The notes under the pieces: model-generated
What the model was told of the DNA's origin: nothing
Database searches by the model: none
Seen by the model: only the letters and a program-made list of their open reading frames with translations
Assembly (NCBI GenBank): GCA_015491865.1
Contig: WFVD01000008.1
Location: 138,002-202,001 of the forward strand
Direction of reading: 5' to 3'
DNA: 64,000 bases
From: Gammaproteobacteria bacterium
GTDB taxonomy: Bacteria; Pseudomonadota; Gammaproteobacteria; SZUA-140
Shown here: positions 1-55,167 of the stretch, one piece after another
How positions within the stretch are numbered: position 1 is the stretch's first letter
Layout: each line of letters starts with the position of its first letter
Program-made: the position numbers and the translations under genes

Positions 1-1596
1 CTCAGCCCAATTGACTGTCACCTTGGACTTGAGATAGCACTCTTTAGTGGCGAAGAGAAAGAGACAATTGAGAGCGCATTTGAATTTGTGAGAGAAGATT
101 GCCTGGTTCATATATTACCGCCCAGGGCGAAGATAAAGCGCTACATAGAGATGATTAATGCACTCCCTGAAGATGATAAAAAAATAGGCGAATTGTTGGT
201 CTCCTGCGGCGCTCTCACAAAATCAGAACTCGAAGGGGTGATTGATGAGCAGACCGAACATCGTTTTAGTCCCGCAGCCGGTAATTCACAGGTGCTGGGT
301 GAGATCGTTACCGAAAAAGGGATGGTTCAGAAAGAGGTGGTTGAAGCTGCAGCAGAAAAACAGCAGCGGGTTCGTTCTCTCAACAGCTCAGCGAAAACCA
401 TCCGGGTTGATTCTGAGAAACTGGATACGTTAGTCAATCTCGTGGGTGAAATGGTGATTGCGGGTGCCGGCACCGACCTTATCGCAAGACGCCTCGGTGA
501 TGATTCGCTAGTTGAATCGATGTCCGTGATGTCGCGCCTGGTTGAGGAGATCCGCGACAGCGCATTACATTTACGTATGGTTCAGATTGGGGAGACATTC
601 AACCGCTTTAACCGTGTTGTGCGTGATGTTAGCAAGGAGCTGGGTAAAGATATCAGGCTGGAAATTGCCGGTGCAGAAACTGAACTGGACAAGACAGTTG
701 TAGAGAAGATTGGTGACCCATTGATGCACCTGGTGCGTAACGCAATGGATCATGGTATCGAACCTGCTGATATACGTGTTGCGGCCGGCAAGCCTGCACA
801 GGGGCTGTTAAAGCTTAACGCCTATCACGACTCCGGCAGTATTGTCATTGAAGTGGAGGATGATGGTGCCGGCCTTAAGCGAGATGCCATTCTGGCAAAG
901 GCGATTGAAAAAGGCATTGTAGCTAATGGTCAGGTTTTAACGGACCAGGAAATTTATCGTTTGATTTTTGAACCAGGTTTTTCAACGGCAGAGCAGGTTA
1001 CAAATCTCTCTGGTCGTGGTGTTGGAATGGATGTGGTTAAAAAAAATATCGAGGCGTTAAGAGGGCTGGTGGATATCGAAAGCGAGGTAGGCATTGGTTC
1101 AAAGATCGTCATTCGCATGCCACTAACACTTGCGATCATCGACGGCTTTCTTGTCGGTGTTGGCCATTCATCCTATGTAATCCCGCTCGACATGGTACTT
1201 GAGTGCGTCGAATTGAGTGATGCAGAGCGGATAGAGGCACGTAAGCAGAGCTATATTAATCTTCGTGATGAAGTGTTGCCTCTAATGAGGCTGCGTGACA
1301 GTTTTAATATTAAAGGTGAAAACAGTGGGCGTGAAAATATCGTAGTGGTTCAGTGTGGTGGCTTAAAAGCGGGGTTGATTGTGGATGAACTACGAGGTGA
1401 ATTTCAGACAGTGATCAAACCGTTAGGCCGAATATTCCAGGGGTTAAAAGGCATTAGTGGTTCAACAATTCTGGGCAGTGGTGAAGTTGCGGTGATTCTT
1501 GATGTGCCGGGACTCATTAAACAGGTGGCTGAAGCGGGTGGGCGTATCACTTCAGTAAGTAATGGAAATCAAAATAAATCTCATGTTGTGCATTAA
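1..1596 (+). CDS. cheA: Chemotaxis histidine kinase CheA, 5'-truncated by the window edge (dimerisation, HATPase_c and CheW-like domains present)
   Basis: Frame 1 is open from nt 1 (LSPIDCHLGLEIALFSGEEK... precedes the first ATG at 88). Kinase motifs HLVRNAMDHGIE and GRGVGMD are present, as is a C-terminal CheW-like domain. Confidence 0.85.
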   Translation, partial: LSPIDCHLGLEIALFSGEEKETIESAFEFVREDCLVHILPPRAKIKRYIEMINALPEDDKKIGELLVSCGALTKSELEGVIDEQTEHRFSPAAGNSQVLGEIVTEKGMVQKEVVEAAAEKQQRVRSLNSSAKTIRVDSEKLDTLVNLVGEMVIAGAGTDLIARRLGDDSLVESMSVMSRLVEEIRDSALHLRMVQIGETFNRFNRVVRDVSKELGKDIRLEIAGAETELDKTVVEKIGDPLMHLVRNAMDHGIEPADIRVAAGKPAQGLLKLNAYHDSGSIVIEVEDDGAGLKRDAILAKAIEKGIVANGQVLTDQEIYRLIFEPGFSTAEQVTNLSGRGVGMDVVKKNIEALRGLVDIESEVGIGSKIVIRMPLTLAIIDGFLVGVGHSSYVIPLDMVLECVELSDAERIEARKQSYINLRDEVLPLMRLRDSFNIKGENSGRENIVVVQCGGLKAGLIVDELRGEFQTVIKPLGRIFQGLKGISGSTILGSGEVAVILDVPGLIKQVAEAGGRITSVSNGNQNKSHVVH

Positions 1597-1676
1597 GTTG
1601 TGATTTTTAAGGGGCCTTAAATAGGCTGTTTGAAGCATATTTTTAGTGATTCTAAAGAACAGGAATCAAGGAGCGA

Positions 1677-3365
1677 GTGATGATTAAGTTAAACAACATT
1701 AAAATTGCAAAAAGAATGGCCATGGCCGTGGGTATTCCCGTTCTTCTTCTTGCTTCTGTATTAGGCTTTTCCATTTACAAATTAAAAGGAGTTGAAACAG
1801 AGATTGTTAATATTGCGGAAACAGATATGCCATTGATGGAGTTGATTACCTCGATTACCGAACAGCAACTTGAGATATCAGTGCTATTTGAACGCAGCCT
1901 TAGATTTGGTGATGCGATAGCCACCGATGAAAAATCGCGTGATGAATTTAATGCTCTTGTGGAAGAAGTTAGCCAGAGCGAAGCTAGCGTGACTAAGGAT
2001 ATTGTGGCTGCTGAGGAAATGGCTGAAGCGGCGATTAGCAGTGCGCATGATGCCGCCGCAAAAGCAGAGTTTGAGAAGATTCTAAAAGCGCTTAAAGGTA
2101 TAGAGAAAGAGGCCGAGCTGGTTTCTGCTCATGTAGCAGAAGTGTTTGCGCTATTTGAGGCGGGTGATCTGGCTAAGGCGCATGAACGTAGTGAGGCCGT
2201 AGCGCATGAAGCAGAAACGTTATTTACACATATAGAGGGGGCGCTATCTGAAGTGGCGGCTTTTACAGATGCTGCTGCGAGGCAGGCAGAGAGTGATGTG
2301 AAGATGACCGAGACGATGGTGATGGGTATAGGCGCTGCTGCACTGGTGATAGGGCTGCTATTGGGTGTTGTCGTAGTGCGTTCAATTACGCGCCCAATGA
2401 ACGAGATCCTTGCCGCAGCAGATGATCTGCATAAAGGGGATGGCGATTTAACTTACCGCTTGCCTGATTTTGGTAGCGATGAGATTGGTGAAACGGCCAA
2501 CTCAATCAACGGTTTTATTGCCAAAATGCAAAACGTATTGCTAGATGTACGTGCCTCAGTCGAAACGGTTGCGACGGCCTCCGAAGAGGTGAGCGCCTCT
2601 GCGCAGAGTTTGAGCCAGGGTTCATCAGAGCAGGCGGCCAGTGTCGAAGAGACCAGCGCCGCGCTTGAACAGATGAGTGCTTCGATCAATCAGAATACCG
2701 AAAATGCAAAAGTGACCGATGGCATCGCCACCCGAGCCGCACAGGAGGCACTCGAAGGGGGTGAGGCCGTGACTGAAACGGTTGATGCAATGAACCAGAT
2801 TGCTGACAAGATCGGATTGATAGAAGACATCGCCTATAAAACAAACCTGCTTGCGCTGAATGCAGCGATCGAGGCCGCACGAGCAGGTGAACATGGCAAA
2901 GGTTTTGCCGTAGTGGCGGATGAGGTGCGCAAGTTAGCGGAGCGTAGCCAGGTTTCAGCACAGGAGATCAGTGAACAGGCGGGTAACAGCGTGAAGGTTG
3001 CAGAGCGTGCTGGTGGCCTGCTGGAGGCAATGGTCCCTAATATTCGTAAGACTGCTGATCTGGTGGAGGAGATTTCGGCCTCATCCGAAGAGCAGGCAAC
3101 GGCTGTCTCACAAGTGAATGGTGCGATGGGGCAGCTCGATCAGGTTTCACAGCAGTCCGCGGCCTCTTCAGAACAGCTTGCCGCAACCTCTGAAGAGCTG
3201 AGTGCAAATGCGGAGCAGCTGCAGAAGATCATCGGCTTCTTTAAATTAGACAATCATGCTCAGGCCCAGAACAGAGAATCACTACCTTTAGATGTTGAAG
3301 ATGAGGAGCCGGAAAGCCATGTTGGCGCTAACCAGGATTTTGTTCCATTTGGCAAGGCAGTATAA
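1677..3365 (+). CDS. Methyl-accepting chemotaxis protein (N-terminal TM, periplasmic region, second TM, HAMP, MCP signalling domain)
   Basis: Highly conserved MCP signalling motif [34 protein letters not shown]. There are two hydrophobic segments flanking a roughly 180-aa region. An RBS-like GGAG sits upstream. Confidence 0.85.
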
Positions 3366-3383
3366 CGGCGGGAGGGCAGGGCA

Positions 3384-3953
3384 ATGGCAAGCAATACGGT
3401 GGCAGCGCAGCAGCAGCCTGTAACAGCGCTTAACAAGTACCTCTGTTTTATGCTGGGTGATAAACGATTTGCAGCGAATATCTTGCGTATCAAAGAGATT
3501 ATGGAGCACATGGAAGTGACCACAATCCCGATGATGCCAGAATTCCTGTGCGGTGTTACCAATTTGCGAGGCAGTGTGGTTCCGGTCATTGACCTTGGTA
3601 AGCGGCTCGGTATGGGTGCCGTCTCAATCGGTCGGCGCACCTGCATTGTGATAATGGAGGTCGCCGTTCATGGGACTTCAATTGATGTTGGCATCATGGT
3701 AGATGCCGTCAACCAGGTAGCGGATATCACACCGGATGAAATTGAATCCGCCCCAAGTTTTGGCGGTAATATTTCGACTGAATTCATCGAAGGAATGGGG
3801 AAGGTGGATGGTGCGTTTGTGGTGCTACTCAACATTGATCGCCTGCTTTCGCTAGATGATCTTTCGCTGTTGAGTGATGCGGGCAGGATGGCAATGCAGA
3901 TGGATGCTCAGGCGGCACTACAGTGCGAACAGCCACAGGAGGTACGGTCATGA
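3384..3953 (+). CDS. cheW: CheW coupling protein (copy 1)
   Basis: 189-aa CheW-like domain. It lies 18 nt after the MCP stop. Confidence 0.85.
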   Translation: MASNTVAAQQQPVTALNKYLCFMLGDKRFAANILRIKEIMEHMEVTTIPMMPEFLCGVTNLRGSVVPVIDLGKRLGMGAVSIGRRTCIVIMEVAVHGTSIDVGIMVDAVNQVADITPDEIESAPSFGGNISTEFIEGMGKVDGAFVVLLNIDRLLSLDDLSLLSDAGRMAMQMDAQAALQCEQPQEVRS

Positions 3954-4513
3954 GCGAGTTTCTGGAAGAAAAAGAGCAGCCACACAATGCCGTGATCGCA
4001 GCTAACGAGAGCATGGCGGTTGATTGCCATCAAGAACTGAATAAATACCTGACCTTTCGTGTTGGTGAGTCTAACTTTGGGATTGATCTGCTGCGTATCA
4101 AGGAGATTATTGAGTATGCCAGTGTGTGTGATATTCCGATGGTGCCAGAACATATTCGAGGTGTAATTAACCTGCGCGGTAATGTGGTGCCGGTCATTGA
4201 TCTGGCCAATCGCATAGGCGTGACGGGTGATGCGACGGCGAGTAACCGTAGCTGCATCATCATTATCGATGTGAAAGCTCAGGATGAGTCGCTAGATATC
4301 GGTATTGTTGTCGATGCGGTGAATAAAGTCTACGAAATTGGCGAAGAAGATGTGGCACATGCACCGGCCTTTGGGGCCAATATTCGTACCGAGTTTATTA
4401 AAGGTATGGGGCGGATTGACCGACAGTTTGTAGTGTTATTAGAGCTTGCAAAGGTCCTCAATGCTGATGACCTGTCGATAAGCGATATCGCTAGCAATGC
4501 AGGGCATGTATAG
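3950..4513 (+). CDS. cheW: CheW coupling protein (copy 2)
   Basis: CheW-like domain. The ATG at 3950 overlaps the copy-1 stop (ATGA) and GGAGG lies 7 nt upstream, so this start is preferred over the GTG at 3923. Confidence 0.8.
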   Translation: MSEFLEEKEQPHNAVIAANESMAVDCHQELNKYLTFRVGESNFGIDLLRIKEIIEYASVCDIPMVPEHIRGVINLRGNVVPVIDLANRIGVTGDATASNRSCIIIIDVKAQDESLDIGIVVDAVNKVYEIGEEDVAHAPAFGANIRTEFIKGMGRIDRQFVVLLELAKVLNADDLSISDIASNAGHV

Positions 4514-4552
4514 CGTGGCCAACAATAAATAATATGATACTGGGGAAGTACG

Positions 4553-5392
4553 ATGTCGGCAGTAGCCAATAAGTCAGTGATGCTGGAGTCCATTAGAGAT
4601 GAAGAGTTTGCCGTATTTCAGGCGATGATTTACGAGCAGGTGGGCATCTCGATGAGTGAAAAGAAAAAATCACTGGTCGAAGGGCGGCTGGCAAAACGTC
4701 TGCGGCACCACGGTCTCAGCGATTACGCCTCTTATATAAAATTGATTAAGAGTGGTAATAGCGCAGAGCGCCAGATGGTAATCGATATGTTAACCACCAA
4801 TGAAACCAGCTTCTTTCGCGAGCAGCGTCATTTTGATTTTTTAACGAGCGAGGTGATACCAGCAAGTGGCCACGGCAGCCCTTACCGTATCTGGAGTGCA
4901 GCCTCATCATCGGGTGAAGAGGCCTACTCCATGGCGATGTTATTCGCAGATAAATATCGCTCAGACCGCTGGGAAATTATTGGTACCGATATTAGCCAGC
5001 AGATTCTGGCCAAAGCACGCAAGGCGCTCTACCCGATGCGTGCAGCAGAAAAAATCCCGCCTGATTATCTCAACCGATTCTGCCTGAAAGGGGTGCGCGA
5101 GCAGGAGGGGATGTTTCAGATCGATAAAAAGCTGGCCAGTAAAGTCACCTTTAACTCGCTTAACCTGAATGGTCAATGGCCTTCAAATATGGGGATGTTT
5201 GATCTGATTTTACTGCGTAATGTGATGATCTATTTTGACCAGAAAACCAAGCAGACCCTGGTGGAAAAGATTCTGCAACAGTTACGCCCCGGTGGCTATT
5301 TTATGATTGGCCATTCAGAAACCCTAAACGGGGTGAGTACAGCGGTAAAAATGGTCAAGCCATCAATATACTTAAAACCAGCAGTCCCATAG
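4553..5392 (+). CDS. cheR: Chemotaxis protein methyltransferase CheR
   Basis: N-terminal CheR all-alpha domain plus a SAM-dependent methyltransferase fold (FFREQRHFDFL, IWSAASSSGEEAYSMAM). Confidence 0.85.
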   Translation: MSAVANKSVMLESIRDEEFAVFQAMIYEQVGISMSEKKKSLVEGRLAKRLRHHGLSDYASYIKLIKSGNSAERQMVIDMLTTNETSFFREQRHFDFLTSEVIPASGHGSPYRIWSAASSSGEEAYSMAMLFADKYRSDRWEIIGTDISQQILAKARKALYPMRAAEKIPPDYLNRFCLKGVREQEGMFQIDKKLASKVTFNSLNLNGQWPSNMGMFDLILLRNVMIYFDQKTKQTLVEKILQQLRPGGYFMIGHSETLNGVSTAVKMVKPSIYLKPAVP

Positions 5393-20827: not shown

Positions 20828-22120
20828 CTAAGTCGTCTGGCGCTGCTCACGCGCGACGGCGCGGTAGCCGATGTCGTTGCGATAAAATGCGCCATCCCAG
20901 CTGATTTTTTTAACGTGGGCGTAGGCGTTTTTCTGCGCATCACTCACCGTTGCGCCGAGTGATGAGACGCAGAGCACGCGGCCACCTGCGGTTACAACAT
21001 GACCGCCTTCGATGCGCGTACCGGCATGAAACACTTTGCTGTTCTCAGTGTCGTTATCAAGGCCGCTGATTATATCACCCTTCGGATAGCTGCCGGGGTA
21101 GCCTGTGGCTGCCATCACCACGCCAAGAGCGACCCGCTCGTCCCACTCTGCAGTGACACTCTTGAGTCTTTTATCCAGAGCCGCATCGCACAGCTCTGTG
21201 ATATCGGATTTGAGGCGCATCATGATTGGCTGGGTTTCAGGGTCGCCAAAACGGCAGTTGTATTCGATCACCTTTGGTGTGCCGTCGGCGCTGATCATCA
21301 GCCCGGCATAGAGGAAACCGGTGTATGGGTTGCCTTCACTCGCCATGCCGTTAACCGTTGGTTCGATCACCTCTTTCATGATGCGGGCGTGAATCTCATC
21401 GCTCACCACCGGTGCAGGCGAGTACGCCCCCATGCCGCCAGTGTTGGGGCCGGTGTCCCCTTCGCCAACACGTTTGTGATCCTGGCTGGTTGCCATCGGC
21501 AGGATGTTTTTGCCATCAACCATGCAGATAAAGCTCGCCTCCTCACCCGTTAAAAACTCTTCGATCACCACGCGGTGGCCCGCTTCACCAAAGGTGTTAC
21601 CGGCAAGCATCTCTTTGATCGCTGTTTCGGCTTCGGCGAGTGTCATCGCTACAATCACCCCTTTGCCAGCCGCAAGGCCATCGGCCTTAACAACGATAGG
21701 CGCGCCCTGCTGGCGAACGTAGGCGAGAGCGGCTTCGGTCTCAGTAAAGTTCTGGTAGCGGCCGGTCGGAATATGGTGGCGTGCCAGAAAGTCTTTGGTG
21801 AACGCCTTGGAGCCTTCCAGTTGGGCGGCCTCCTCGGTAGGACCAAAGCAGCGCAGGCCCGCCGCTTCAAAGCGGTTAACCACACCGGCAACCAGTGGCG
21901 CCTCAGGGCCGACGATGGTGAGGCCTACCCTCTTTTCTTTGGCAAAGGCGAGCAGTGCCGGAATCTCTTCAGCGCCAATGGCGACGTTTTCCAGTTTCTC
22001 TTCGCGTGCGGTGCCCGCGTTGCCGGGTGCAACATAAACGGTTTCGACTCGCGTTGATTGCGCCGCTTTCCAGGCCAGCGCGTGTTCGCGACCACCGCCG
22101 CCGATAATCAGTACCTTCAT
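20828..22120 (-). CDS. purD: Phosphoribosylamine--glycine ligase PurD
   Basis: Full-length PurD with an ATP-grasp fold (MKVLIIGGGGREHALAWK...). Confidence 0.9.
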   Translation of the reverse strand: MKVLIIGGGGREHALAWKAAQSTRVETVYVAPGNAGTAREEKLENVAIGAEEIPALLAFAKEKRVGLTIVGPEAPLVAGVVNRFEAAGLRCFGPTEEAAQLEGSKAFTKDFLARHHIPTGRYQNFTETEAALAYVRQQGAPIVVKADGLAAGKGVIVAMTLAEAETAIKEMLAGNTFGEAGHRVVIEEFLTGEEASFICMVDGKNILPMATSQDHKRVGEGDTGPNTGGMGAYSPAPVVSDEIHARIMKEVIEPTVNGMASEGNPYTGFLYAGLMISADGTPKVIEYNCRFGDPETQPIMMRLKSDITELCDAALDKRLKSVTAEWDERVALGVVMAATGYPGSYPKGDIISGLDNDTENSKVFHAGTRIEGGHVVTAGGRVLCVSSLGATVSDAQKNAYAHVKKISWDGAFYRNDIGYRAVAREQRQTT

Positions 22121-22407
22121 GAATTAATATATCTTTATAATGTTGATGGGGTGACGTTAACTAGTTAAGTGCCGCTTTCCAGAATGCAGGCCACGCACAC
22201 TTTTTTGCAAGTGGGTAAGAATAGCGCATTCTGGGGGGGTGGGTCATCCTCATACCGGGTGATGGAAGTCATTTGTCAAAGACACGCAAGCCGTTGTTTT
22301 GCAATGTTATACAAAATGTCTAATCAATTGAAATAAATAGAGAAATATGCTACTATGGGGCTGTTTCTGGTTGGTCTGAAGCGCTCTTTCTGGCCACCAG
22401 CCATAAA

Positions 22408-25400
22408 ATGCCATTCAGGAACGCTATTTCACCATATGAGCAGGGTTTAAGTATGTTGGTCACGCAACAGTCACAGCGCTCACATCAGCAGCGAAATGCC
22501 ATCATCCGCTGGTTGTCTGTCGCTGTACTCGCTTTTGCTATTTCTGCTGAACCCTTCGCTGCCCCTGATATTGAAGCCGCTTTCCCCGCTGCAACCAATC
22601 TGGTCACAAACGGCCCTGTGCTGGCAAGTGCCTCGTTTGGCTCGAATAGCGGGGAGACGACAGGGCTTGGTGTCGGGCTGGATGCGGCGACCGCACTGAT
22701 TAACCCGCGCTTCCCAAAAGTGGCCGGCGGAGCCTCTAGCCAGATATACGCGGTTATTGAAGATGGCTTTGGTGGTTGGGTGATCGGGGGTGATTTCGAT
22801 ACGGTGGGCGGTGTGGCGCTAAGAAACCTCGCACATATCCAGGCCGACCTCAGTGTCAACAGTGCCTGGCGGCCCAATCCTGATGGTGTTGTCAGGGCGC
22901 TGCTGTTCCATACCGGCAGCAAGGGGCTGCGGCTGCTGGTCGGGGGGGATTTTACCCAGATCCATGGCGAGGCTCGTAGCTATTTTGCTGAGCTCCATAC
23001 CGGTTCGATATCCAAACCAGTGACCTCGCTGGATCTTTTTATAGATGCGCCGGTACATGCGATTGCCAAAGCAGATGAGACGCTGGTTTATATCGCCGGT
23101 GAGTTTACTGTTGTGCGCGGAACAGGTCCGCGAGATGATGATGGCGATGGGCATCTTGATGTCGATATTAATGGTTGGGTCAAGGTCGATATGGATGGCG
23201 ATGGCGTTTTTGAAACGTCGATGAATATTGTTGGTGATGGTGTCAATGATATTGATGTCGATGGCGATGGTGATATTGATATTGATGTGACGCTTGATGG
23301 TGTAGTGGATGCAGATATCAATGTCGATTATAGCCAGCCAGATCCAGCGCCATCATTAGATGTGCCGTTTGACCAGACCTATCCGCAGGTTTCTCGTCAA
23401 AGGATCGCCGCACTTGATCTGGATGCAGAAAGTAACGGCATGGTGGTGGATGAATGGAACCCGAATGCTGATGGTGTTGTGCGTACGATAGCGCTTGCAC
23501 CTGAGCGTAGTAAGCTCTATGTCGGCGGAGACTTTTTGAATATCTCCGTTGGTAGTGGTGCCAATATCAGTCGTCAACGCATCGCAGCATTGAATACAGC
23601 CAATAATATCAACATTATTACGACCTGGAATCCTGGTGGAGCATCAACAAATTCAATTTATGCAATGTACCTCGAAGAGTTCGGGATTGATAACGAAAGC
23701 GGTGAAGAGAACGGCCTGCTCTATGTGGGTGGTGATTTTACGGAGATAGGGGGCAAGTCACGTCAGAACTTTGCAGTACTTGATATCGCGCTGGCGGTGA
23801 ACAATGCGAATGCGTGGGATTTGCAGTTTGATGATGTTGTGCTTGCCATTGCGCGGGCAGACGAGACCTTCTTCATTGGCGGCGCGTTTAATTCGGTGAC
23901 GATAGAGGGTGTGGTGGAGAGTGACTTTAAACGCCTTGCTGCATTCAGGCGTGGCCCCGGAACATTGATTACTGCCTGGAACCCGGATGTTAATGGTGAT
24001 GTGAGTGCGCTAGCGGCCAGTGAGACTACAGGCATCGTCTATGCTGGAGGGAAGTTCAATTCTGTGGGTGACACATCGCGGCTTTACATTGGCGGCGATT
24101 TTACCTATATCGGGCCGAGTACCGGTAGCGGCGTGGTGGTGGATACCTCAGCCGGGATTGTGCAAAGCGGGTGGCCTGAGGTGAATGGTGATGTTTATGC
24201 AGCGATATCCGATGGTAGTGATGGTTGGTACATCGGCGGTAGTTTTAGTGAGATTACGGATAGTGTGTCGACCTATACCCGCAATAATGTGGCTCATATT
24301 AGTAGTGCGGGCACGGTGACCAGCTGGGATCCCAGTACGAACGGTGCTGTTCATGCGATGGCAGTGAACGGTACTTCGGTTTATATAGGAGGCGATTTCA
24401 CAACGATCGGTGGGCAGGCGAGAAACAATATTGCACTCACCGATAGCAGCGGCACGACGACCAGCTGGGATCCCGGTGCGAACGGTGTTGTTCGTACATT
24501 GGCAGTGAGTGGTACTTCTGTATACGCAGGAGGTGACTTCACGACAATCGGTGGGCAGGCGAGAAACTATGTTGCACTCATCGATAACAGCGGCACGACG
24601 ACCAGCTGGGATCCCGGTGCGAACGGTGTTGTTCGTACATTGGCGGTGAGTGGTACTTCTGTATACGCCGGGGGCGACTTCACGACAATCGGTGGGCAGG
24701 CGAGAAACCATGTTGCACTCATCGATAACAGCGGCGCGACGACCAGCTGGGATCCCGGTGCGAACGGTGTTGTTCGTACATTGGCAGTGAGTGGTACTTC
24801 TGTATACGCCGGGGGCGACTTCACGACAATCGGTGGGCAGGCGAGAAACCATGTTGCACTCATCGATAACAGCGGCGCAGCAGCGAGCTGGGACCCCAAT
24901 GCCGATGCGCCCGTTTCAGAACTCCTGTTCGATAGTGGCACCGTCTATGTCGGCGGTGATTTTAGCTTTATCGGTAGCCTATTACGTAATCGCGCGGCAG
25001 CATTTACAGTGGGTAGTAGTGTGGCAACGGCCTGGGCCCCTTCGGTTGGCAATAGCGTGCATGCGCTGTCGCCCGGTGCGGCGGGTATCTTTATTGGCGG
25101 TGCCTTCTCTTCCGTGGGTGGGGTTACACGAGAGCGAATCGCAGCCATCGATTTAAGTAGTGGTGGGCTTGATGCCAGTTTTAATGTTGGCACCAATGCA
25201 AGGATAACGACCATGCAGCTAAGCGGTGATGGCACGACACTCTATGTGGGCGGGGAGTTTACTTCCGTGGGTGGGCAGCCGCGTAACCATATCGCAGCAT
25301 TAAACACAGAGACCGGTGCAGCATACCCCTGGAACCCTGACATTAATGGTACTACATCAACAACCGCAGCATATGACATTGAACTGTCCGCAGCGGGCGA

Positions 25401-27183
25401 TCTGCTTTATGTAGGCGGTGCGTTTGAGACGATCGGCGGTGTAACAAGAAATAACCTTGGTGCCATATCGGTAGAGGATGGTGATGTGGCAGCGTGGGAC
25501 CCTTCTGCTGATGGTGCTGTTTATACCATCCAGCTAAGTGGTGATACATTGCTGGTTGGCGGTGATTTCCTTAATATGAACACCAATGGGCAGAACATCT
25601 CCCGTATGCGTCTTGCTGCATTAAATACAGAGGAGGATGTTGATAACGCCACTCCATGGGCACCGGCAGCTGATGCAACGGTACGCGATATGGCCCTTGC
25701 GGGGAGTACGCTCTATATTGGTGGCGACTTCACGCAGATCAATGATAGTGGTTTTACGCGTTCGCGAAACTATCTTGCCGCCCTCGATACCGCGGCCAAC
25801 GCGTTTAATCTCCTCGGCTGGAACCCCGATGCGAATGGCCGTGTGCATGCCATCGCGTTAACAGATGATGCCGTCTTCGTTGGCGGCGACTTTACCAGTA
25901 TCGGTGGCGCGACACCGCGTGAACGCCTTGCCGCCCTCGACTTTCTGGACGGTAACCCGCTGGCGTGGTGGGATCTTCGGGCCAGTTCCGCAGTGCCAGC
26001 CGGCGCTTCCGCTACAGTACGTCACCTGGGGATAAGCGAGGTGGGTGATCGCATGATTATCTCGGGTGACTTTCGTGAGATCACGACAACAGCACCGACA
26101 ACAACCTACTTAAGACAGGGGTTAACAGCGGTTGATATCGCTTTTCCCCATATGGTTACGAACCCACCTGCCGGCGCGTATCAGGTCGCACAATCTGTCA
26201 CGATGAGCTGTATTGATGTCCCAAAGAGTTGTACGCAATCGATTTACTATACAGTCAATAGCACTGCCGATCCTGTGGTCTCAGGTTCGCCGCCATCGCA
26301 GTCGATCCTTATCTCGGATAATACGACGCTGAAGATGTTGACGGAAGACGATGCGGGTAATCAATCTGGCATACAGTCATCACTCTATATTATTGATTCT
26401 TTACCGCCAGAGACAACGGCAACACCTGCTGGACGAGGGACAGATGGAAAGATTCTGAATAATAGTGATGATCGAGAAATAACACTGGACTGTGTTGATA
26501 GCGGTGGGGCAGGCTGTGCAGAGACCTACTACACCCTTGATGGCTCCAATCCGACGGATAGCTCGATAGTCTATACCGGCCCGATTGAGCTTAATGAAAA
26601 TACCACATTGAAATATATCTCATTTGATCAGGCACGCAATGATGAGACAGCGGGCTCTGGTATCAAGGAAGATCAATACTGGGTCGATTTAACACCGCCT
26701 ACGGTAGCTCCCGACCCGCCGACAGGAGTGTTCTATTCTGCGGATCTTAGCGTCACATTGTTATGTAGTGATGACCCCGACGTGACGCCGGCATCGATAG
26801 GCGATATCCCCGATGCGAGTGACCCGCCTGACCCTAATGACCCGCCCATTACCGGTACACCCGCTAGTGAGGATAACAGTAACCGTACGGCAACGGGGTG
26901 TTCCGGTGTCTATTACACCCTGGATGATACGACACCGACAATCAACTCTACCCTCTATACAGGGCCTATTACATTTTCAGAAAGCACCATTATAAAATTT
27001 ATTGCGATAGACCATGCCGGTAATGAAGGGGTGGTTGAGCGCGCGAGCTATGTTCGAAATTACAGTGATAATGCGGGAAGCGCAGGGCCGATAGGGCTCA
27101 TATTACTACTGCCATGGCTCTATTGGCGCACTCGAAGGGTTTGCCGTGCCGGTTTGCTACACCATAGCAGAGGGAGCGTCTGA
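22408..27183 (+). CDS. Giant secreted/surface repeat protein 1 (signal peptide, delta-60-type beta-propeller repeats, acidic DxDGDG calcium-binding-like array, three chitobiase/Hex C-terminal-like modules, C-terminal TM sorting signal)
   Basis: 1591-aa ORF. The likely true start is the ATG at 22453 (MLVTQQ...RWLSVAVLAFAISAEPFAAP signal peptide). The motif YxGGDFTxIGGxxRNxxAxxD recurs about 20 times every roughly 47 aa. YYTxDGSxPTxSSxxYTGPI modules occur near the C-terminus. The protein ends GPIGLILLLPWLYWRTRR. Confidence 0.75.
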   Translation: MPFRNAISPYEQGLSMLVTQQSQRSHQQRNAIIRWLSVAVLAFAISAEPFAAPDIEAAFPAATNLVTNGPVLASASFGSNSGETTGLGVGLDAATALINPRFPKVAGGASSQIYAVIEDGFGGWVIGGDFDTVGGVALRNLAHIQADLSVNSAWRPNPDGVVRALLFHTGSKGLRLLVGGDFTQIHGEARSYFAELHTGSISKPVTSLDLFIDAPVHAIAKADETLVYIAGEFTVVRGTGPRDDDGDGHLDVDINGWVKVDMDGDGVFETSMNIVGDGVNDIDVDGDGDIDIDVTLDGVVDADINVDYSQPDPAPSLDVPFDQTYPQVSRQRIAALDLDAESNGMVVDEWNPNADGVVRTIALAPERSKLYVGGDFLNISVGSGANISRQRIAALNTANNINIITTWNPGGASTNSIYAMYLEEFGIDNESGEENGLLYVGGDFTEIGGKSRQNFAVLDIALAVNNANAWDLQFDDVVLAIARADETFFIGGAFNSVTIEGVVESDFKRLAAFRRGPGTLITAWNPDVNGDVSALAASETTGIVYAGGKFNSVGDTSRLYIGGDFTYIGPSTGSGVVVDTSAGIVQSGWPEVNGDVYAAISDGSDGWYIGGSFSEITDSVSTYTRNNVAHISSAGTVTSWDPSTNGAVHAMAVNGTSVYIGGDFTTIGGQARNNIALTDSSGTTTSWDPGANGVVRTLAVSGTSVYAGGDFTTIGGQARNYVALIDNSGTTTSWDPGANGVVRTLAVSGTSVYAGGDFTTIGGQARNHVALIDNSGATTSWDPGANGVVRTLAVSGTSVYAGGDFTTIGGQARNHVALIDNSGAAASWDPNADAPVSELLFDSGTVYVGGDFSFIGSLLRNRAAAFTVGSSVATAWAPSVGNSVHALSPGAAGIFIGGAFSSVGGVTRERIAAIDLSSGGLDASFNVGTNARITTMQLSGDGTTLYVGGEFTSVGGQPRNHIAALNTETGAAYPWNPDINGTTSTTAAYDIELSAAGDLLYVGGAFETIGGVTRNNLGAISVEDGDVAAWDPSADGAVYTIQLSGDTLLVGGDFLNMNTNGQNISRMRLAALNTEEDVDNATPWAPAADATVRDMALAGSTLYIGGDFTQINDSGFTRSRNYLAALDTAANAFNLLGWNPDANGRVHAIALTDDAVFVGGDFTSIGGATPRERLAALDFLDGNPLAWWDLRASSAVPAGASATVRHLGISEVGDRMIISGDFREITTTAPTTTYLRQGLTAVDIAFPHMVTNPPAGAYQVAQSVTMSCIDVPKSCTQSIYYTVNSTADPVVSGSPPSQSILISDNTTLKMLTEDDAGNQSGIQSSLYIIDSLPPETTATPAGRGTDGKILNNSDDREITLDCVDSGGAGCAETYYTLDGSNPTDSSIVYTGPIELNENTTLKYISFDQARNDETAGSGIKEDQYWVDLTPPTVAPDPPTGVFYSADLSVTLLCSDDPDVTPASIGDIPDASDPPDPNDPPITGTPASEDNSNRTATGCSGVYYTLDDTTPTINSTLYTGPITFSESTIIKFIAIDHAGNEGVVERASYVRNYSDNAGSAGPIGLILLLPWLYWRTRRVCRAGLLHHSRGSV
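24319..25023 (+). repeat. 141-bp (47-codon) tandem repeat array inside giant gene 1: five units, the central three almost identical at nucleotide level
   Basis: ACCAGCTGGGATCCCGGTGCGAACGG recurs at 24460, 24601 and 24742 with only 1-3 substitutions per unit. Flanking units at 24319 and 24883 are more diverged. The antisense ORF 24148-24852 shows the same periodicity. Confidence 0.85.
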
Positions 27184-30100
27184 TGAGGATGGCTGGTATC
27201 GATGGAAATGGCTGCTGGATTAAACATCTTTGGCGGTGTGTCATCGCGCTGCCAGCTCTTTTGTTGATGTCGGTGGAGGCTGGCGCGGTTGCCACGCCTC
27301 GGGCCGATGTGTGGCAACCCAACGGGCCGGTGTACGCTGTCGAGATGTCAAAAGAGGATGGCGCCAATAGTGTCTATGTCGGCGGCGATTTTACCTATGT
27401 CGGCCCCGGCCCTGGCTCCAGTTCCGGCAACGCAGCGGCCGTTAGCATGGCCACCCCATATTATCCTGCTGTCACCCCTGGCTTTAACGGCCCTGTCTAT
27501 GCGGTGGTACCGGGGCCGAATGACGGCTGGTATGTTGGCGGAGCTTTTGACACCGTGGTGGATAAAGAGGGTAATTTGATACCACGCAATAATCTTGCGC
27601 AGATCGATGCCGAAGGTAATGTTCTGAACTGGGATCCTAACATTGGTTCATCGCTTGCGAGTGATCGTGTCAATGTGCTGTTTTATGATGCCCTGAATGA
27701 TCGGCTCTATGTCGGTGGCAACTTTACATCGGTCAATACCGATACGGTGAATGATGAGCCGAGAAATAATCTGGCTGCATTTGATACGACAGTGGATACC
27801 AATAATGCTATCCCATGGAATCCGAATGCTAATGCGGAAGTCCTGTCGATGGCATATGATGCAGGTAACAATCTGCTTTATGTCGGCGGCGCCTTTACTA
27901 CCATCGATGCGCAGACAAGAAATTATATTGCTGCGCTAAATGTTAACCATACCACTACACCCGCTCCTGGTGATTACGATGCAGGATGGGATGCCAATGT
28001 TAACAATGTCGTGAGGGCGCTAAGTCTAGATCTGCCCAATGGGCGTCTATATGCCGGTGGTGACTTTACCCAGGTGAACGGGGGGGCAGCACAGCGCAAC
28101 TATCTGGCTCTGTTTGATACCACCAGTGCGAGTGACCTCGGCTGGAACCCCGATGCCGATGCAAGCGTACGTGCGCTATGGTATTTCGAAAATCGACTCT
28201 ATATCGGTGGTGATTTCACGACTATCAAATCAAATCCAAGGGGCGCTTTTGTCGTGGTTGATGTGTCAGATATCGCATCACCTGTCTCCACCAGTGATCT
28301 TCTTCTGGGTGGATTAATACCACCGTTTACCGGTGCAACCAGCGTGCGTGTGAATCAGATAATTGCCGGTAGCAGTGTAATTTATGTTGCCTGGCAGGGA
28401 GTGCTTGATGGTGATTTGCTGGGGCGGATGCAGGTGCTTGATGCGAGTGATGGTGCTGTTCAGTGGTACACCGATGCCGATGGCCCAATCAATGCGTTCT
28501 GGCCGTCAGGGACAAAGCTGTTAATCGGTGGTGAATTTGCTTCAGGTGGTGGTCGCATTCGGAGCAATCTTGCAGAAATTAACATTAGCACCGGTACGGG
28601 AAACAGTGTCGGTGCAGCGACGGACTGGCGTGTGTATGTGGATGGCCCGGTGCATAGCCTTGAGTCAAAGAGCGATGGCCTTGCACTTTATATTGGCGGC
28701 AGCTTTACCAGGGTGGGTGACACATTAACGCCACGCGACAACATCGCACTGCTCAGCACCATCGGAACAGAGGTGGGGGCGAGCGCCTGGGCGCCATCGA
28801 TAACGGGCACAGTAGTGAAAACAATGGCGCTTTCACCCGATGAGACCATGCTCTACGTTGGGGGTGATTTCACGGCCATCGAAAACCAGCCGCGTGCCAA
28901 TATCGCAGCACTTGATACCTCGGTGGTGGGTGAGAATGGGGATAATGTATTAACCACCTGGAACCCGGGTTCCAGTCCTGGTGCAGATGGTGTGGTCCAT
29001 ACGCTAGTGGTCAGCAGCGATGGTAATCTGGTCTTTGCTGGTGGCGACTTTACCATTATCGGCGGGGTAAGCCGCTCGCGGGTCGCCGCGATCAGGGTCT
29101 CTAACGGCATCCCGCTTTCCGATGATTTATGGGCGATCACAGCACCCGCTGCGGTGAATGGTGTGGTGCGCTCGCTGGTGTTGAGCGGGGATGATAAGCA
29201 GCTGTTTCTTGGTGGCGACTTTACGGCAATAGATGATGGCACTATTCAGATGAGAAACCGTGTTGCTGCACTTGAGGTGGTCAGTGGCCAGTGGCGTGTA
29301 GCGGGCGCGGTTGATCCCAATGTTGATCTCAATGTGATTGCACCTGTCGCGACGAGCAGTATCTATTCTCTTGCCCTTTCGAGTGACGATCGCATGCTAT
29401 GGCTGGGTGGGGATTTTACCGAGGTCACCAATAATACCGATAGATCAAGAGATAATGTGGCACGCTATAATTTAAGTGAAGCGGCGGAAAATGATCTGAC
29501 AAGCTGGAATCCCGTGATTACCGGCAGTGGCCCCGCGGGATTCCTGCCCGGCGGGCCGCTGGTTCATGCTGTTGAGCGAAGCGCCGATGATAGTCAGGCG
29601 ATTATTGGCGGTAATTTTACGGCAGTTGGTGCCACACCTGCACCCCATCAATACCTGGCTGTGTTTGATACCACGCGCCCAACAGTCATTAACCATGTGG
29701 CGGGTGGTTTTTATAATACGAACCCATTGAGAGTGCCGATCTCCTGCTCGTACGCTCCGACAGCCGAATCATGCAGTATTTTTTATACAATTAACGGGCC
29801 TGAGCCGACCCAGGCACTTGTTCCATACGACTATATTCAGCCGCCCCCCGCACCGCCGGAACCGCCGCCGCCACCACCGATACCCGACGACCTCACTGCT
29901 GCCACATCAGTGCTTCAGTTTTTTGCGCGAGACGCGCACGGCTCGGTGAGTGAAACCATCTCGGTCACCTATGGGATCGATGCCACCTATCCAACGACGG
30001 TCGCGCAACCAAGTGAAATATTGCCGGATCTGTTATTTGATGTGGGTGTGCCAGAGGTGGCCGACACCGAGGTGAGAATCGCACTGGTGTGTGATGACCA

Positions 30101-31310
30101 GGGGGGGGCAAACTGTAACCAGACTTTTTACACCACGGATAATTCTGATCCCCATAATGGAGATGATGGCACGCCTGGTTTGACAGCTAACCTGTATAGC
30201 GAACCACTCACGCCAAAACAGCTTCTGCCACTGAAGTCATCAACGCTGGCGGATCTGACGGAGGCAGAAGAGGCAGTTTATTATGATATGACCCTGGCCG
30301 ACATTGTGACGACTGAGGAAAACGCCGCATACCGTGTTGATCTGAGCGCCTTTACCCTGGGGGATGTCCCGCGTGCGGCTGTGGCGCTAACGAGTATCAG
30401 CCTGGATCGTGTCAGAGAGCATGTCGATCTGGCTGAGATCAGACTGGACTCGCTGACATCAAACATACTCGATAATGTGGTCGATCCCAGCAATGTGCCC
30501 GACGATGCAGAGACACTGGCTGATCTGAATGAAGACGAGCTGGATCTGACCCAGGTGACATTGGGTTCCATTTCAGGCAGTGCCTATTCGCTGGATGAGA
30601 TTCCCGCTGCACTTGCGCCCCCACCGACCTATATTCTTGCTTCACAGGTGCCATTAATTCAGGTCTTTCTGGATGGAACAGAGGATGACATTGTTCTGCG
30701 TGCCGTCAGGCGTGAGCGTGTCTCGCTGGAGCAGATCCCGGCCGAGTTTATCCCGGGTTCGAGACTCTATGGGCTGGTAAACCTGCAGTTTTTTTCGACT
30801 GACCGGGCGGGTAATAGTGAGGTGCTCAACCCCGCTAACCCCGGCGCAAAAAGCCAGCTGTATTACGTTGATATCGGGCCGCCCAGAACGACAGCAGAGC
30901 CGAACACGGAGGGCAATGTATTTACTTCCGAGATTCATGTGGTGCTGACCTGCTATGACTTTGAAGATGTTGCGGCCGACGCGACAAAGCTGGGTGGTGT
31001 GACAGGTTCCGGCTGTAAAGAGAACGGGATCTACTACACGACGAATGAAAGCGAACCCAACCCTGATGACGCCGGTCCAGGCAAGTCGACCCAGATTTAT
31101 ACTGGACCGATTCCGATCTCAAAAGCGACGGTGTTGCGCTATCTGTCGGTCGATAATATGGGTAACGCAGAAAGTGCAAAGTTTGAGGTCTACGCCTTTA
31201 CCTTCAGCAGTGTTGGTAAAAGTGGCGTCGGCACAAGCGATTTAGCGATCTGGCTCTTCGCACTGCTGGGGTTGGGGCTACGCTGGCGAGTAACGCGGGC
31301 GGCAAGTTAA
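27183..31310 (+). CDS. Giant secreted/surface repeat protein 2 (signal peptide, delta-60-type repeats, Pro-rich linker, Hex C-terminal-like modules, C-terminal TM sorting signal)
   Basis: 1375-aa ORF whose ATG overlaps the stop of gene 1 (TGATG). The same YVGGDFT repeat family is present. A PPPAPPEPPPPPPIP linker lies near nt 29850. The C-terminus is DLAIWLFALLGLGLRWRVTRAAS. Confidence 0.75.
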   Translation: MRMAGIDGNGCWIKHLWRCVIALPALLLMSVEAGAVATPRADVWQPNGPVYAVEMSKEDGANSVYVGGDFTYVGPGPGSSSGNAAAVSMATPYYPAVTPGFNGPVYAVVPGPNDGWYVGGAFDTVVDKEGNLIPRNNLAQIDAEGNVLNWDPNIGSSLASDRVNVLFYDALNDRLYVGGNFTSVNTDTVNDEPRNNLAAFDTTVDTNNAIPWNPNANAEVLSMAYDAGNNLLYVGGAFTTIDAQTRNYIAALNVNHTTTPAPGDYDAGWDANVNNVVRALSLDLPNGRLYAGGDFTQVNGGAAQRNYLALFDTTSASDLGWNPDADASVRALWYFENRLYIGGDFTTIKSNPRGAFVVVDVSDIASPVSTSDLLLGGLIPPFTGATSVRVNQIIAGSSVIYVAWQGVLDGDLLGRMQVLDASDGAVQWYTDADGPINAFWPSGTKLLIGGEFASGGGRIRSNLAEINISTGTGNSVGAATDWRVYVDGPVHSLESKSDGLALYIGGSFTRVGDTLTPRDNIALLSTIGTEVGASAWAPSITGTVVKTMALSPDETMLYVGGDFTAIENQPRANIAALDTSVVGENGDNVLTTWNPGSSPGADGVVHTLVVSSDGNLVFAGGDFTIIGGVSRSRVAAIRVSNGIPLSDDLWAITAPAAVNGVVRSLVLSGDDKQLFLGGDFTAIDDGTIQMRNRVAALEVVSGQWRVAGAVDPNVDLNVIAPVATSSIYSLALSSDDRMLWLGGDFTEVTNNTDRSRDNVARYNLSEAAENDLTSWNPVITGSGPAGFLPGGPLVHAVERSADDSQAIIGGNFTAVGATPAPHQYLAVFDTTRPTVINHVAGGFYNTNPLRVPISCSYAPTAESCSIFYTINGPEPTQALVPYDYIQPPPAPPEPPPPPPIPDDLTAATSVLQFFARDAHGSVSETISVTYGIDATYPTTVAQPSEILPDLLFDVGVPEVADTEVRIALVCDDQGGANCNQTFYTTDNSDPHNGDDGTPGLTANLYSEPLTPKQLLPLKSSTLADLTEAEEAVYYDMTLADIVTTEENAAYRVDLSAFTLGDVPRAAVALTSISLDRVREHVDLAEIRLDSLTSNILDNVVDPSNVPDDAETLADLNEDELDLTQVTLGSISGSAYSLDEIPAALAPPPTYILASQVPLIQVFLDGTEDDIVLRAVRRERVSLEQIPAEFIPGSRLYGLVNLQFFSTDRAGNSEVLNPANPGAKSQLYYVDIGPPRTTAEPNTEGNVFTSEIHVVLTCYDFEDVAADATKLGGVTGSGCKENGIYYTTNESEPNPDDAGPGKSTQIYTGPIPISKATVLRYLSVDNMGNAESAKFEVYAFTFSSVGKSGVGTSDLAIWLFALLGLGLRWRVTRAAS

Positions 31311-31334
31311 ACTAGCGCCCGTTTCAGATGTTGT

Positions 31335-32909
31335 TTAATGTCTGAAGTGGCGCATACCGGTAAAGACCATCGCCATCCCGTGCTTATTGGCGGCATCGAT
31401 CACTTCCTGGTCTCGCATTGAACCGCCGGGTTGAATCACCGCTGTGATGCCCGCTTCAGCAGCGGCATCAATACCATCGCGGAATGGAAAGAAGGCATCA
31501 CTTGCCATCACAGAGCCTTTAACCTGCAGGCCGGCATCGGCTGCCTTGATGGCCGCGATGCGGGCACTATAAACACGGCTCATCTGACCCGCACCCACAC
31601 CGATCGTGGTGAGTTCCTTGCCATAGACAATGGAATTTGATTTAACAAATTTAGCCACCTTCCAGCTAAACAGCAGGTCTCTCATCATCTCATCTGACGG
31701 GGCGATCTCTGTCACAACCTTAAGATCGTCTGCGGTGACCATCGCGGTATCTGCGCTCTGTAACAGCATGCCGCCGTTTACGCGACGGTAGTCAAGAGAT
31801 GTGCTGCGCGCCTGTGGCCACTCACCACAGGCCAGCAGCCGCACATTCCCTTTTTCAGCTACGGTTGTCATCGCCCCTTTGGTCACTGATGGGGCGATGA
31901 TAACTTCAACAAACTGGCGGTCGATGATTGCACGCGCCGCTTCAGTATCAAGCGGACGATTAAAGGCGATAATCCCACCAAAAGCAGAGGTCGGATCGGT
32001 TTTATAGGCACGGTCATAGGCGTCAAACAGTGAGCCGGCAACCGCAACACCACAGGGATTGGCATGCTTCACGATCACACAGGCGGGTCGATCAAACTGT
32101 TTGACACATTCCAGTGCCGCATCAGTATCTGCGATGTTATTGAATGAGAGCGCCTTTCCTTGCAGCTGTGCTGCCGTGGCGACGCACGCTTCCTGCGCGC
32201 GCGCTTCAATATAGAACGCTGCCTTCTGATGGGGGTTCTCACCATAGCGTAGCTCCTGTGCCTTAATGAACTGCGCATTGAAGCTGTGCGGAAAGGCAGC
32301 TCGATTTTTATTGGAGAGGCCGCCATCGGTAATACTGCCGAGATAGTTAGCGATGGTACTGTCGTATGCAGCAGTGTGTTCGAAAGCCTTTACCGCCAGT
32401 GAAAAGCGCGTTGCATGACTGAGCGCAGTACCGTTTTCAGCCATCTCTTCGAGCACTTCAGCGTAGTCATTTGAGTCGACAACAATCGCTACGTCGCGAT
32501 GGTTCTTGGCGGCAGCGCGCACCATGGTCGGGCCGCCGATATCGATATTCTCAATCGCCATTGGCAGGTCGCAGTCGCCTCTGGCGACGGTCTGTTCAAA
32601 GGGGTAGAGGTTAACCACCACCAGATCGATCGCTGCGATGTTATGTTCAGCCATCGCATCGCCATCGACATCGCGCCGCCCAAGAATACCGCCGTGAATC
32701 TTTGGGTGCAGCGTTTTGAGTCGTCCATCCATCATCTCTGGAAAGCCTGTGTGGTCTGAGACCTCAATCACATCGACGCCGTTATCAGCGAGGAGTTTGG
32801 CGGTGCCGCCGGTTGAGAGAATCTCCACCTTCATCGACTGTAGCCCCTGGGCAAATGCTAGAATATTGGTCTTGTCCGAGACACTGATAAGTGCGCGTTT
32901 AATCGTCAT
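31335..32909 (-). CDS. purH: Bifunctional AICAR transformylase/IMP cyclohydrolase PurH
   Basis: Full-length PurH (MGS-like domain plus AICARFT domain). Confidence 0.9.
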
Positions 32910-55105: not shown

Positions 55106-55167
55106 TTTTTCTCTCCATGATTTATTGTGCTTGCCATTACACCACATGGTTGCTAGGGTTTTCCTGT

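Follow-up and report, generated by a model that had tools for sequence, protein, structure and literature searches.

Introduction

Proteins with DUF5122 (PF17164) repeats are very common in environmental bacteria, where thousands of homologues are found as large, exported, multi-domain proteins, and among them are giant surface proteins of Bacteroidota that are sorted by the secretion system of type IX (T9SS). To our knowledge, none of the large DUF5122 propeller proteins has been characterised. In this study, we analysed two adjacent genes, here called A and B, which encode proteins of this kind in a 64,000-nucleotide (nt) stretch of DNA from a member of the Gammaproteobacteria (assembly GCA_015491865.1, contig WFVD01000008.1, positions 138,002 to 202,001 of the forward strand; the whole stretch is referred to as the window). 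An earlier reading of the DNA, made from its letters alone (the sequence-only reading), had recognised no characterised system in this pair, and this still stands: neither protein has a match by sequence in the PDB (0 matches), and a literature search on DUF5122, delta-60 and CHB_HEX_C turned up no work on proteins of this kind, the one paper that mentions DUF5122 doing so only as a modelling target.

The DUF5122 proteins, including those sorted by the T9SS, share with A and B a blade of about 45-50 amino acids (aa) with the pattern GGxFTxIGGxxRNxxAxxD ... W.P.a.G.V. They differ in that they carry T9SS sorting domains (PF18962) or different modules at the end, whereas A and B have three CHB_HEX_C modules and then a helix/Arg tail after the propellers, and their genes occur as a coupled pair that is conserved at one fixed position of the core genome. 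Tripartite tails on large exported Gram-negative proteins are also known from the GlyGly-CTERM substrates of rhombosortase (for example VesB of Vibrio cholerae) and from MYXO-CTERM and PEP-CTERM proteins; in V. cholerae, rhombosortase cuts the GlyGly-CTERM tails, and the type II secretion system brings the proteins to the surface (PMC6219818). Unlike these, the tails encoded in the window match none of the curated models, and no cognate protease was seen in the window.

At the level of structure, the same predicted fold class and seven-bladed stacking as in A are found in the periplasmic sensor domain BT4663 of Bacteroides thetaiotaomicron (PDB 4a2l/4a2m), in 2ymu and in the triple propellers of DDB1 and SF3b130. 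BT4663 shows that tandem propellers in a bacterial envelope are able to bind glycans; A and B, unlike BT4663, have no signalling domain, and with identities of 9-13% and global TM-scores of 0.1-0.3 against the query the likeness of all these structures to A is one of fold only. The C-terminal modules of A resemble the Leptospira OmpL47-type domain (NCBIfam NF047446) below its curated cutoff (38 bits against 40), the rest of the architecture not being common to the two. Integrin alpha chains and yeast Rax2 consist of a signal peptide, a propeller head with DxDxDG-type acidic loops, immunoglobulin (Ig)-like legs, one C-terminal helix and a short basic tail. The same order of parts, with two chains made together, can be traced in A and B, which we regard as an analogy and not as homology; unlike integrins, A and B match no FG-GAP or integrin family and both would be chains of the alpha type.

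We suggest, with about an even chance of being right, that A and B may form a co-expressed, surface-sorted, paired structure of the cell envelope with a non-enzymatic binding or scaffolding role. Added here to what is known of the family are the arithmetic of three plus two propellers, the C-terminal tails, two lineage-specific inserts, a polymorphism of the blade array, and the finding that the coupled pair, together with its promoter, is deeply conserved at the purH-purD site.

Propeller heads and Ig-like modules of A and B

The two genes and the parts of their products are as follows.

22453 to 27183, forward strand: gene A, 1576 aa from M16; signal peptide, three seven-bladed propellers, three CHB_HEX_C modules and a C-terminal tail
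22453 to 22563, forward strand: Sec-type signal peptide of A, aa 16-52 in the numbering of the open reading frame (ORF), read from the sequence; layout conserved in orthologues
22603 to 24075, forward strand: propeller 1 of A, about aa 66-556, blades 1-7, from the repeat model and the structure prediction (per-residue confidence, pLDDT, mostly >85)
23131 to 23388, forward strand: Asp/Gly-rich insert of A, aa 242-327, splitting blade 3, with DxDxDG-type motifs DVDGDGDIDIDV
24076 to 25029, forward strand: propeller 2 of A, about aa 557-874, blades 8-14, from the repeat model and the structure prediction
24310 to 24876, forward strand: tandem DNA array of 4.0 copies of 141 nt (Tandem Repeats Finder, TRF; 92% matches, score 917)
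25030 to 26142, forward strand: propeller 3 of A, about aa 875-1245, blades 15-21, from the repeat model and the structure prediction
26143 to 27078, forward strand: three CHB_HEX_C_1/Fn3_assoc Ig-like modules of A, about aa 1246-1332, 1333-1428 and 1429-1557 (three Pfam stretches, E=2.5e-40 on the segment)
27079 to 27180, forward strand: C-terminal tripartite tail of A, consisting of NAGSAGP, hydrophobic IGLILLLPWLYW, RTRR and a short end
27183 to 31310, forward strand: gene B, 1375 aa; signal peptide, two seven-bladed propellers, three CHB_HEX_C-like modules (two with inserts) and a C-terminal tail
27309 to 29675, forward strand: propellers 1 and 2 of B, about aa 43-426 (seventh blade degenerate) and aa 427-831; 13 repeats found by the model and one degenerate
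29676 to 29987, forward strand: CHB_HEX_C-like module 1 of B (Pfam E=6.6e-4 on the isolated segment), containing a polyproline insertion
29988 to 30875, forward strand: CHB_HEX_C-like module 2 of B, interrupted by an insert at about aa 1010-1195 (30210-30767)
30876 to 31214, forward strand: CHB_HEX_C module 3 of B (Pfam E=1e-8)
31215 to 31307, forward strand: C-terminal tripartite tail of B, consisting of GKSGVGTS, hydrophobic LAIWLFALLGLGL and RWR

Using an iterated repeat hidden Markov model (HMM), we found 21 repeat units of about 47 aa in A (aa 108-1244) and 13 in B (aa 46-831) together with one degenerate unit at aa 363-426; the i-Evalues mostly lie between 1e-12 and 1e-23, far beyond chance. 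About 20 copies had been claimed for each protein, a figure that holds for A and is too high for B. In Pfam, DUF5122 scored 71.0 bits with A (E=9.4e-20) and 41.3 bits with B (E=1.8e-10) against a gathering cutoff of 27 bits, these scores being sums of many weak repeats with no single passing stretch. The Rax2 C-terminal propeller family (PF12768) behaved in the same way: its cutoff of 28.8 bits was exceeded in summed score (47 and 72 bits; E=2.2e-12 and 5.5e-20), there was no single significant stretch, and the best ones cover only about 30-45 of the 254 model positions.

The sequence-only reading had placed the repeats in the delta-60/beta-propeller class, and had proposed that HMM searches and a structure prediction be used to check this. 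The delta-60 label was not borne out, as the repeat regions matched no NCBIfam model at all, and thus not TIGR02608, with the full proteins at E<=0.01 or with two 330-aa repeat segments at E<=10, provided that TIGR02608 is in the release used. By contrast, the propeller part of the claim was confirmed, since DUF5122 is above its Pfam cutoff and the repeat region is predicted to be composed of all-beta propellers. The AlphaFold2 model of aa 45-1240 of A, made with 48 homologues, is essentially all beta, with a mean pLDDT of 88.5 and a predicted TM-score (pTM) of 0.77, and its best matches in a Foldseek search of the PDB (E=1.6e-18 to 1e-13) are tandem or triple seven-bladed propellers, among them BT4663 and, at the top, the two-propeller protein 2ymu (E=1.6e-18). 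The numbers of blades in orthologous loci (labelled L and a number; described below) are informative here: A has 21 in all close orthologues, 14 in L072 and 17-20 matches in three other distant orthologues, and B has 13 + 1 in the close group and exactly seven in six distant orthologues. Since these counts are mostly multiples of seven, A would be made of three propellers and B of two, and on the strength of the models we take the repeats to be DUF5122 beta-propeller blades.

Blade 3 of A is split by an insert whose DNA has a 30-nt periodicity; it is modelled with a pLDDT of 46-81, is conserved in close orthologues and gave no match in a Pfam search. From its sequence, the insert looks like a Ca2+-binding loop. 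The motif LYIGGDFTYIGPSTGSGV stands at the opening of propeller 2 of A and also opens protein B. Within propeller 2 lies the 141-nt array, which encodes four near-identical 47-aa blades, neighbouring units being 74-100% identical. In L089 (5409-10001), with an A protein 95% identical to that of the window, the array is exactly one 47-aa unit shorter, and this difference of four against three copies could be either true variation in the number of blades or an artefact of collapse during assembly. Another, more distant relative, L087, has three near-identical blades of its own, early in the second propeller (about aa 480-620 of the A part). Such homogenisation of blades, seen in the window and independently in L087, might reflect recurrent gene conversion, copy-number change in a closed propeller, or assembly collapse.

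The C-terminal part of both proteins had been described earlier as made of FN3-like, chitobiase-type modules, and this was confirmed, with three modules in each protein, the middle one of B being split. Both Pfam families concerned are above their gathering cutoffs: CHB_HEX_C_1 (PF13290; cutoff 22 bits) scored 129 bits with A (E=6.1e-38, three stretches) and 52 bits with B (E=6e-14, two stretches), and Fn3_assoc (PF13287; cutoff 23 bits) scored 115 bits with A (three stretches) and 44 bits with B (one stretch). The first module of B reaches 20 bits when isolated. It is interrupted by the polyproline run PPPAPPEPPPPPPIP (aa 887-901, 29841-29885), which had been noticed before and taken for a linker; the run is real, and its position inside a module speaks against the name. 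The third Ig-like module of A bears an acidic, Pro-rich loop, DIPDASDPPDPNDPPITG. Cysteines occur in A and B only as pairs, one pair in each Ig-like module, with the exception of one unpaired Cys in the tail of A after the helix. The mature proteins are very acidic, with D+E/K+R counts of 181/74 in A and 160/68 in B.

As, according to its Pfam description, CHB_HEX_C_1 was originally defined at the C-terminal end of chitobiases and hexosaminidases, and as some beta-propellers are hydrolases, A and B could be thought of as carbohydrate-active or other enzymes, with catalytic propellers and accessory CHB_HEX_C modules as in GH20 chitobiases. We consider this extremely unlikely, because neither Pfam nor NCBIfam revealed a glycoside hydrolase or other catalytic family in A or B, because the residues that do not vary in the repeats (G, F, W, D, R and N) are structural ones present in each blade and form no single-site constellation, and because there are no sugar-utilisation genes nearby. 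CHB_HEX_C is also included in a survey of Ig-like folds and fibrillar adhesins (PMC8877628).

The insert in module 2 of B is acidic, Leu-rich and about 185-215 aa long. It is modelled by AlphaFold2 with a pLDDT of 75-92 and a repetitive pattern of strands and 3-10 helices, and it has no Pfam match and no fold match in the PDB. Among 1.84 billion representative proteins it has only six matches at E<=0.001, five strong and one weak, and three of the five strong ones are B orthologues that had already been found; it looks like a lineage-specific domain. Outside the insert, the model of the C-terminal half of B is of low confidence (mean pLDDT 59.5), and the model of this half gave no Foldseek match in the PDB at E<=0.001.

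The combination of propellers and chitobiase-type modules is not unusual, as about 40 of the 120 best database matches have the same domain architecture; where their organisms are named, these are metagenome-assembled genomes (MAGs) of Gammaproteobacteria, and the name given to them by NCBI is 'chitobiase/beta-hexosaminidase C-terminal domain-containing protein'. The architecture is thus common in MAGs and generically annotated, and A and B are an uncharacterised variant of a familiar kind of large envelope or surface repeat protein.

Start of gene A, coupling of A and B, and a conserved probable promoter

The ORF of gene A runs from 22408 to 27183 on the forward strand (1591 aa), and the sequence-only reading had let the gene extend from 22408. 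While an ORF does open there, the true start is almost certainly M16 at 22453, which gives the 1576-aa product. This start is used in the NCBI call and at the equivalent Met of most orthologues, and the 1576-aa form is present in the NCBI MAG GCA_026997475.1, to a contig of which the window is identical over the region compared. Positions 22408-22452 are conserved as nucleotides, yet they contain 1-nt indels in three orthologous loci (L002, L009 and L013), and the stretch is therefore 5' untranslated region and not coding. An exact database look-up of the 1591-aa product found no match, because the databases begin gene A at M16. Signal peptides had been proposed for both proteins, and we agree: judged by reading the sequence and not by a predictor, both N-termini have a Sec-like layout with a basic n-region, 12-15 hydrophobic residues and small residues at the end.

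Around the two genes, three features bear on their expression.

22294 to 22356, forward strand: conserved block (44 nt, 22294-22337) and likely promoter, from a scan for sigma-70-like promoters
27170 to 27185, forward strand: coupling junction, with a Shine-Dalgarno (SD)-like GAGGGAG (27170-27176) inside gene A, 6 nt before the ATG of B, followed by TGATG
31315 to 31353, no strand assigned: hairpin with a fold of -31.7 kcal/mol (z=-2.5), reaching across the 24 nt that lie between the stops of the convergent genes B and purH

The TGA of A (27181-27183) shares its last A with the ATG of B (27183-27185), as had been noticed at the outset. The overlap of stop and start is retained in 12 of 13 orthologous junctions, as TGATG, as ATGA or as a 13-nt overlap, after a purine-rich SD sequence, and A and B are, as judged from these junctions, translationally coupled. 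With an operon and translational coupling, the two proteins are probably made together in a roughly fixed ratio.

The promoter-like site consists of a -35 element TTGAAA at 22328, a 17-nt spacer and a TG-extended -10 element TACTAT ending at 22356, which amounts to a 9/12 consensus match. In 11 close-group loci, at least 41 of the 44 positions of the block at 22294-22337 are identical, a conservation far above that of gene A, and the block occurs once in the window. The sequence of 22294-22356 is likely to be the promoter and operator of the A-B operon. Rfam gave no match in the window or in the spacer between purD and A.

In the close group this spacer has three conserved non-coding blocks (22129-22145, 22207-22231 and 22294-22337). 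TTTTGCA-N6-TACAAAA, an imperfect inverted repeat in the last of them, is located just upstream of the -35 element and is probably a regulator site common to the divergent promoters of purD and A. At the other end of the operon, the hairpin at 31315-31353 may be a bidirectional terminator; it overlaps the 3' end of purH and lacks a U-tract, so that the evidence for a terminator is weak.

Conservation of the pair between purD and purH

The pair lies between two genes of purine biosynthesis.

20828 to 22120, reverse strand: purD, divergent from A (Pfam GARS_N/A/C, E=7e-86)
31335 to 32909, reverse strand: purH, convergent with B (Pfam AICARFT_IMPCHas, E=9e-124)

Beyond these, the upstream flank, which ends with purD, holds metH, a gene for a methyl-accepting chemotaxis protein (MCP), HPP-CBS, hemF and a Sua5/YrdC-family gene, and the downstream flank holds purH, fis, dusB, DUF3426 and prmA. 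The arrangement of purH upstream of purD, both on the minus strand, is that of the Escherichia coli purHD pair, in which 11 nt separate the two genes; as purH and purD are contiguous elsewhere, the A-B pair sits antisense inside that unit.

In a search of contigs, a single-protein query found no relative of the locus, whereas an alignment-based query did. About 20 loci in gammaproteobacterial MAGs, several of whose contigs are cut at one end, have the order purD|A B|purH or A B|purH, and the pair lies between purD and purH in nearly all loci in which both flanks are readable. In one exception (L088) the pair still adjoins purH and purD is located elsewhere. All homologues with DUF5122 and CHB_HEX_C whose context was examined adjoin purH. 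These MAGs bear the labels Thiotrichaceae NORP103, Chromatiaceae SZUA-76, Chromatiales HyVt-459 or plain Gammaproteobacteria. In the close group purD is 84-97% identical to that of the window, A mostly 55-63% (42% in L083) and B about 47-60%; in the distant group purD is 66-69% and purH 61-71% identical, and A and B are 947-1361 and 704-1054 aa long.

A and B are only 31-32% identical to each other, propellers included, and the distinction between them is old: it was there before genomes with a purD of 66% identity diverged. The term tandem duplication, used in the sequence-only reading, suggests a recent event and is not supported in that sense. In a comparison of the window with L089, dN/dS was 0.10 for both A and B, with no 150-codon window above 0.21, and 0.03-0.09 for purD, purH, hemF and prmA; such low values indicate that A and B are functional genes under purifying selection. 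Taken over these loci, the pair is vertically inherited. An origin from a mobile element was considered and rejected, given the housekeeping flanks, the conserved synteny, the absence of integrase and transposase genes nearby and an unremarkable GC content.

A conserved, coupled pair at a fixed core position argues for a housekeeping-like envelope function over that of a strain-specific adhesin, although a role as adhesin, which had also been proposed, would be plausible. The second proposal made at that time, an S-layer-like system, received no specific support. A and B are large, acidic, repeat-rich exported proteins, maybe Ca2+-binding, and a co-expressed pair encoded in the core genome would suit subunits of an S-layer or other regular surface lattice. 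We nevertheless think this very unlikely, as no SLH or other S-layer anchoring or lattice domain appeared in the Pfam or NCBIfam output for A and B, the promoter is just the 9/12 match described above, a sequence match in the PDB is lacking, and such proteins rarely have C-terminal helix/Arg tails or multi-propeller heads.

C-terminal tails and the location of the proteins

Both proteins end in a tripartite tail, a small-residue motif followed by a hydrophobic helix and an Arg cluster, a layout that every orthologue of A and B retains. It agrees with the published definition of a tripartite signal as a Gly/Ser-rich motif, a hydrophobic helix and a basic cluster at the extreme C-terminus (PMC6219818). 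The motif before the helix is conserved within each set of orthologues, as NAGAxGP in A and SGVGxS in B, so that each protein has its own tail signature across the whole clade; the tails in the window lack a PEP motif and also a Cys in front of the helix. A conserved, chain-specific motif favours a processed signal, since a plain anchor would not need one. Some of the tails of distant orthologues come close to curated models, all below threshold and with scores scattered over several models: MYXO-CTERM 16.9 bits (cutoff 20), GC_trans_RRR 15.3 bits (15.85), PEP-CTERM 12.7 bits (16) and also IPTL-CTERM. One single-gene relative (L023) touches a GlyGly-CTERM family model at E=0.27 and is the sole such case. 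Taken together, the tails of A and B are possibly a new variant of C-terminal sorting tail.

Based on these findings, the following model can be proposed. A and B are a two-gene operon of old paralogues, transcribed from the conserved, likely promoter in the purD-A spacer, and each product would be exported by the Sec system and fold outside the cytoplasm. The head would consist of seven-bladed DUF5122 propellers, three in A and two in B, carried on a stalk of three disulfide-containing CHB_HEX_C Ig-like modules, and the tripartite tail would hold each protein or be a site of processing. Surface display would most likely follow upon cleavage of the tail by an intramembrane sorting protease, as with GlyGly-CTERM or MYXO-CTERM proteins. 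The propellers might then serve as ligand-binding faces, with Ca2+ bound by the acidic DxDxDG insert.

Several points weigh against this model. The tails encoded in the window match none of the NCBIfam sorting models, GlyGly-, MYXO- and PEP-CTERM included, even at E<=10, and among the annotated ORFs of the 64-kb window there is no sortase-like protease, rhomboid-like gene or secretion system. If the tail is not cleaved, it would give a type I inner-membrane protein that faces the periplasm and not the surface. An association of A with B is suggested only by their coupling and co-inheritance, and the single apparent fusion found, in L087, is not a Rosetta-stone case. The matches of the propeller fold are generic and say nothing about a ligand, and CHB_HEX_C is also found in glycosidases.

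The L087 locus (GCA_027046025.1, 8001-14060) has a single ORF of 2019 aa, which we considered as an A-B fusion and rejected, because the helix/Arg tail of A and the signal peptide of B are kept internally; it is a read-through or an assembly frameshift at the overlapping stop and start.

The failure of the curated models and the lack of a sorting enzyme in the window keep alive another reading of the tail, namely that A and B are a type I pair of the inner membrane, held permanently by the helix, with the Arg cluster in the cytoplasm and the ectodomains acting as a scaffold or binding platform in the periplasm, for example for peptidoglycan, periplasmic glycans or envelope spacing. This topology follows from a signal peptide and a single C-terminal helix followed by Arg; in addition, the summed score with the Rax2 propeller family is above the Pfam cutoff, and BT4663, one of the best fold matches, is a tandem-propeller sensor of the periplasm. 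On the other hand, the motif before the helix is conserved and differs from A to B, as is typical of sorting signals that are cleaved, the tails of distant orthologues nearly reach the thresholds for MYXO-CTERM and PEP-CTERM, 150-kDa ectodomains that comprise three propellers and a stalk of three modules are large for a periplasm, and propeller relatives in other phyla bear T9SS surface-sorting domains (PF18962). We regard a permanent inner-membrane anchor as possible, if somewhat doubtful.

Bolder still is the idea that A and B are an integrin-like heterodimer of two type I chains, which would serve a chemolithoautotrophic clade of Gammaproteobacteria as an envelope organelle, belonging to the core and inherited vertically, and would be sorted by an undescribed class of C-terminal signal with a protease of its own, or else a transmembrane device for adhesion or spacing. 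We mention this as speculation that is unlikely to be correct.

Compared with these alternatives, we prefer the surface-sorted pair as a working model. The locus offers an unusually clean handle on DUF5122, with paralogues kept together, coupled, under purifying selection and behind a conserved promoter at one position of the core genome. The host clade is a broad, uncultured and likely autotrophic group of Gammaproteobacteria from hydrothermal, subseafloor and possibly other habitats. Knowledge of where the proteins are located and of a partner protease would enlarge the list of surface-sorting systems in Gram-negative bacteria and give DUF5122 its first functional context.

Other features of the window

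A chemotaxis cluster is present at the left end of the window (88-5392, forward strand), consisting of cheA, an MCP gene, two cheW genes and cheR. A Cas9-like gene (51815-55147, reverse strand) is apparently broken into at least two ORFs in a region with a lower GC content (0.48); the piece at 51815-53641 has RuvC_III and HNH domains and that at 53719-54879 the Cas9 alpha-helical lobe, and the region may be a pseudogene or contain MAG frameshifts. Finally, a gene for phosphoribulokinase (prk; 56315-57181, reverse strand) suggests that the organism is a Calvin-cycle autotroph.

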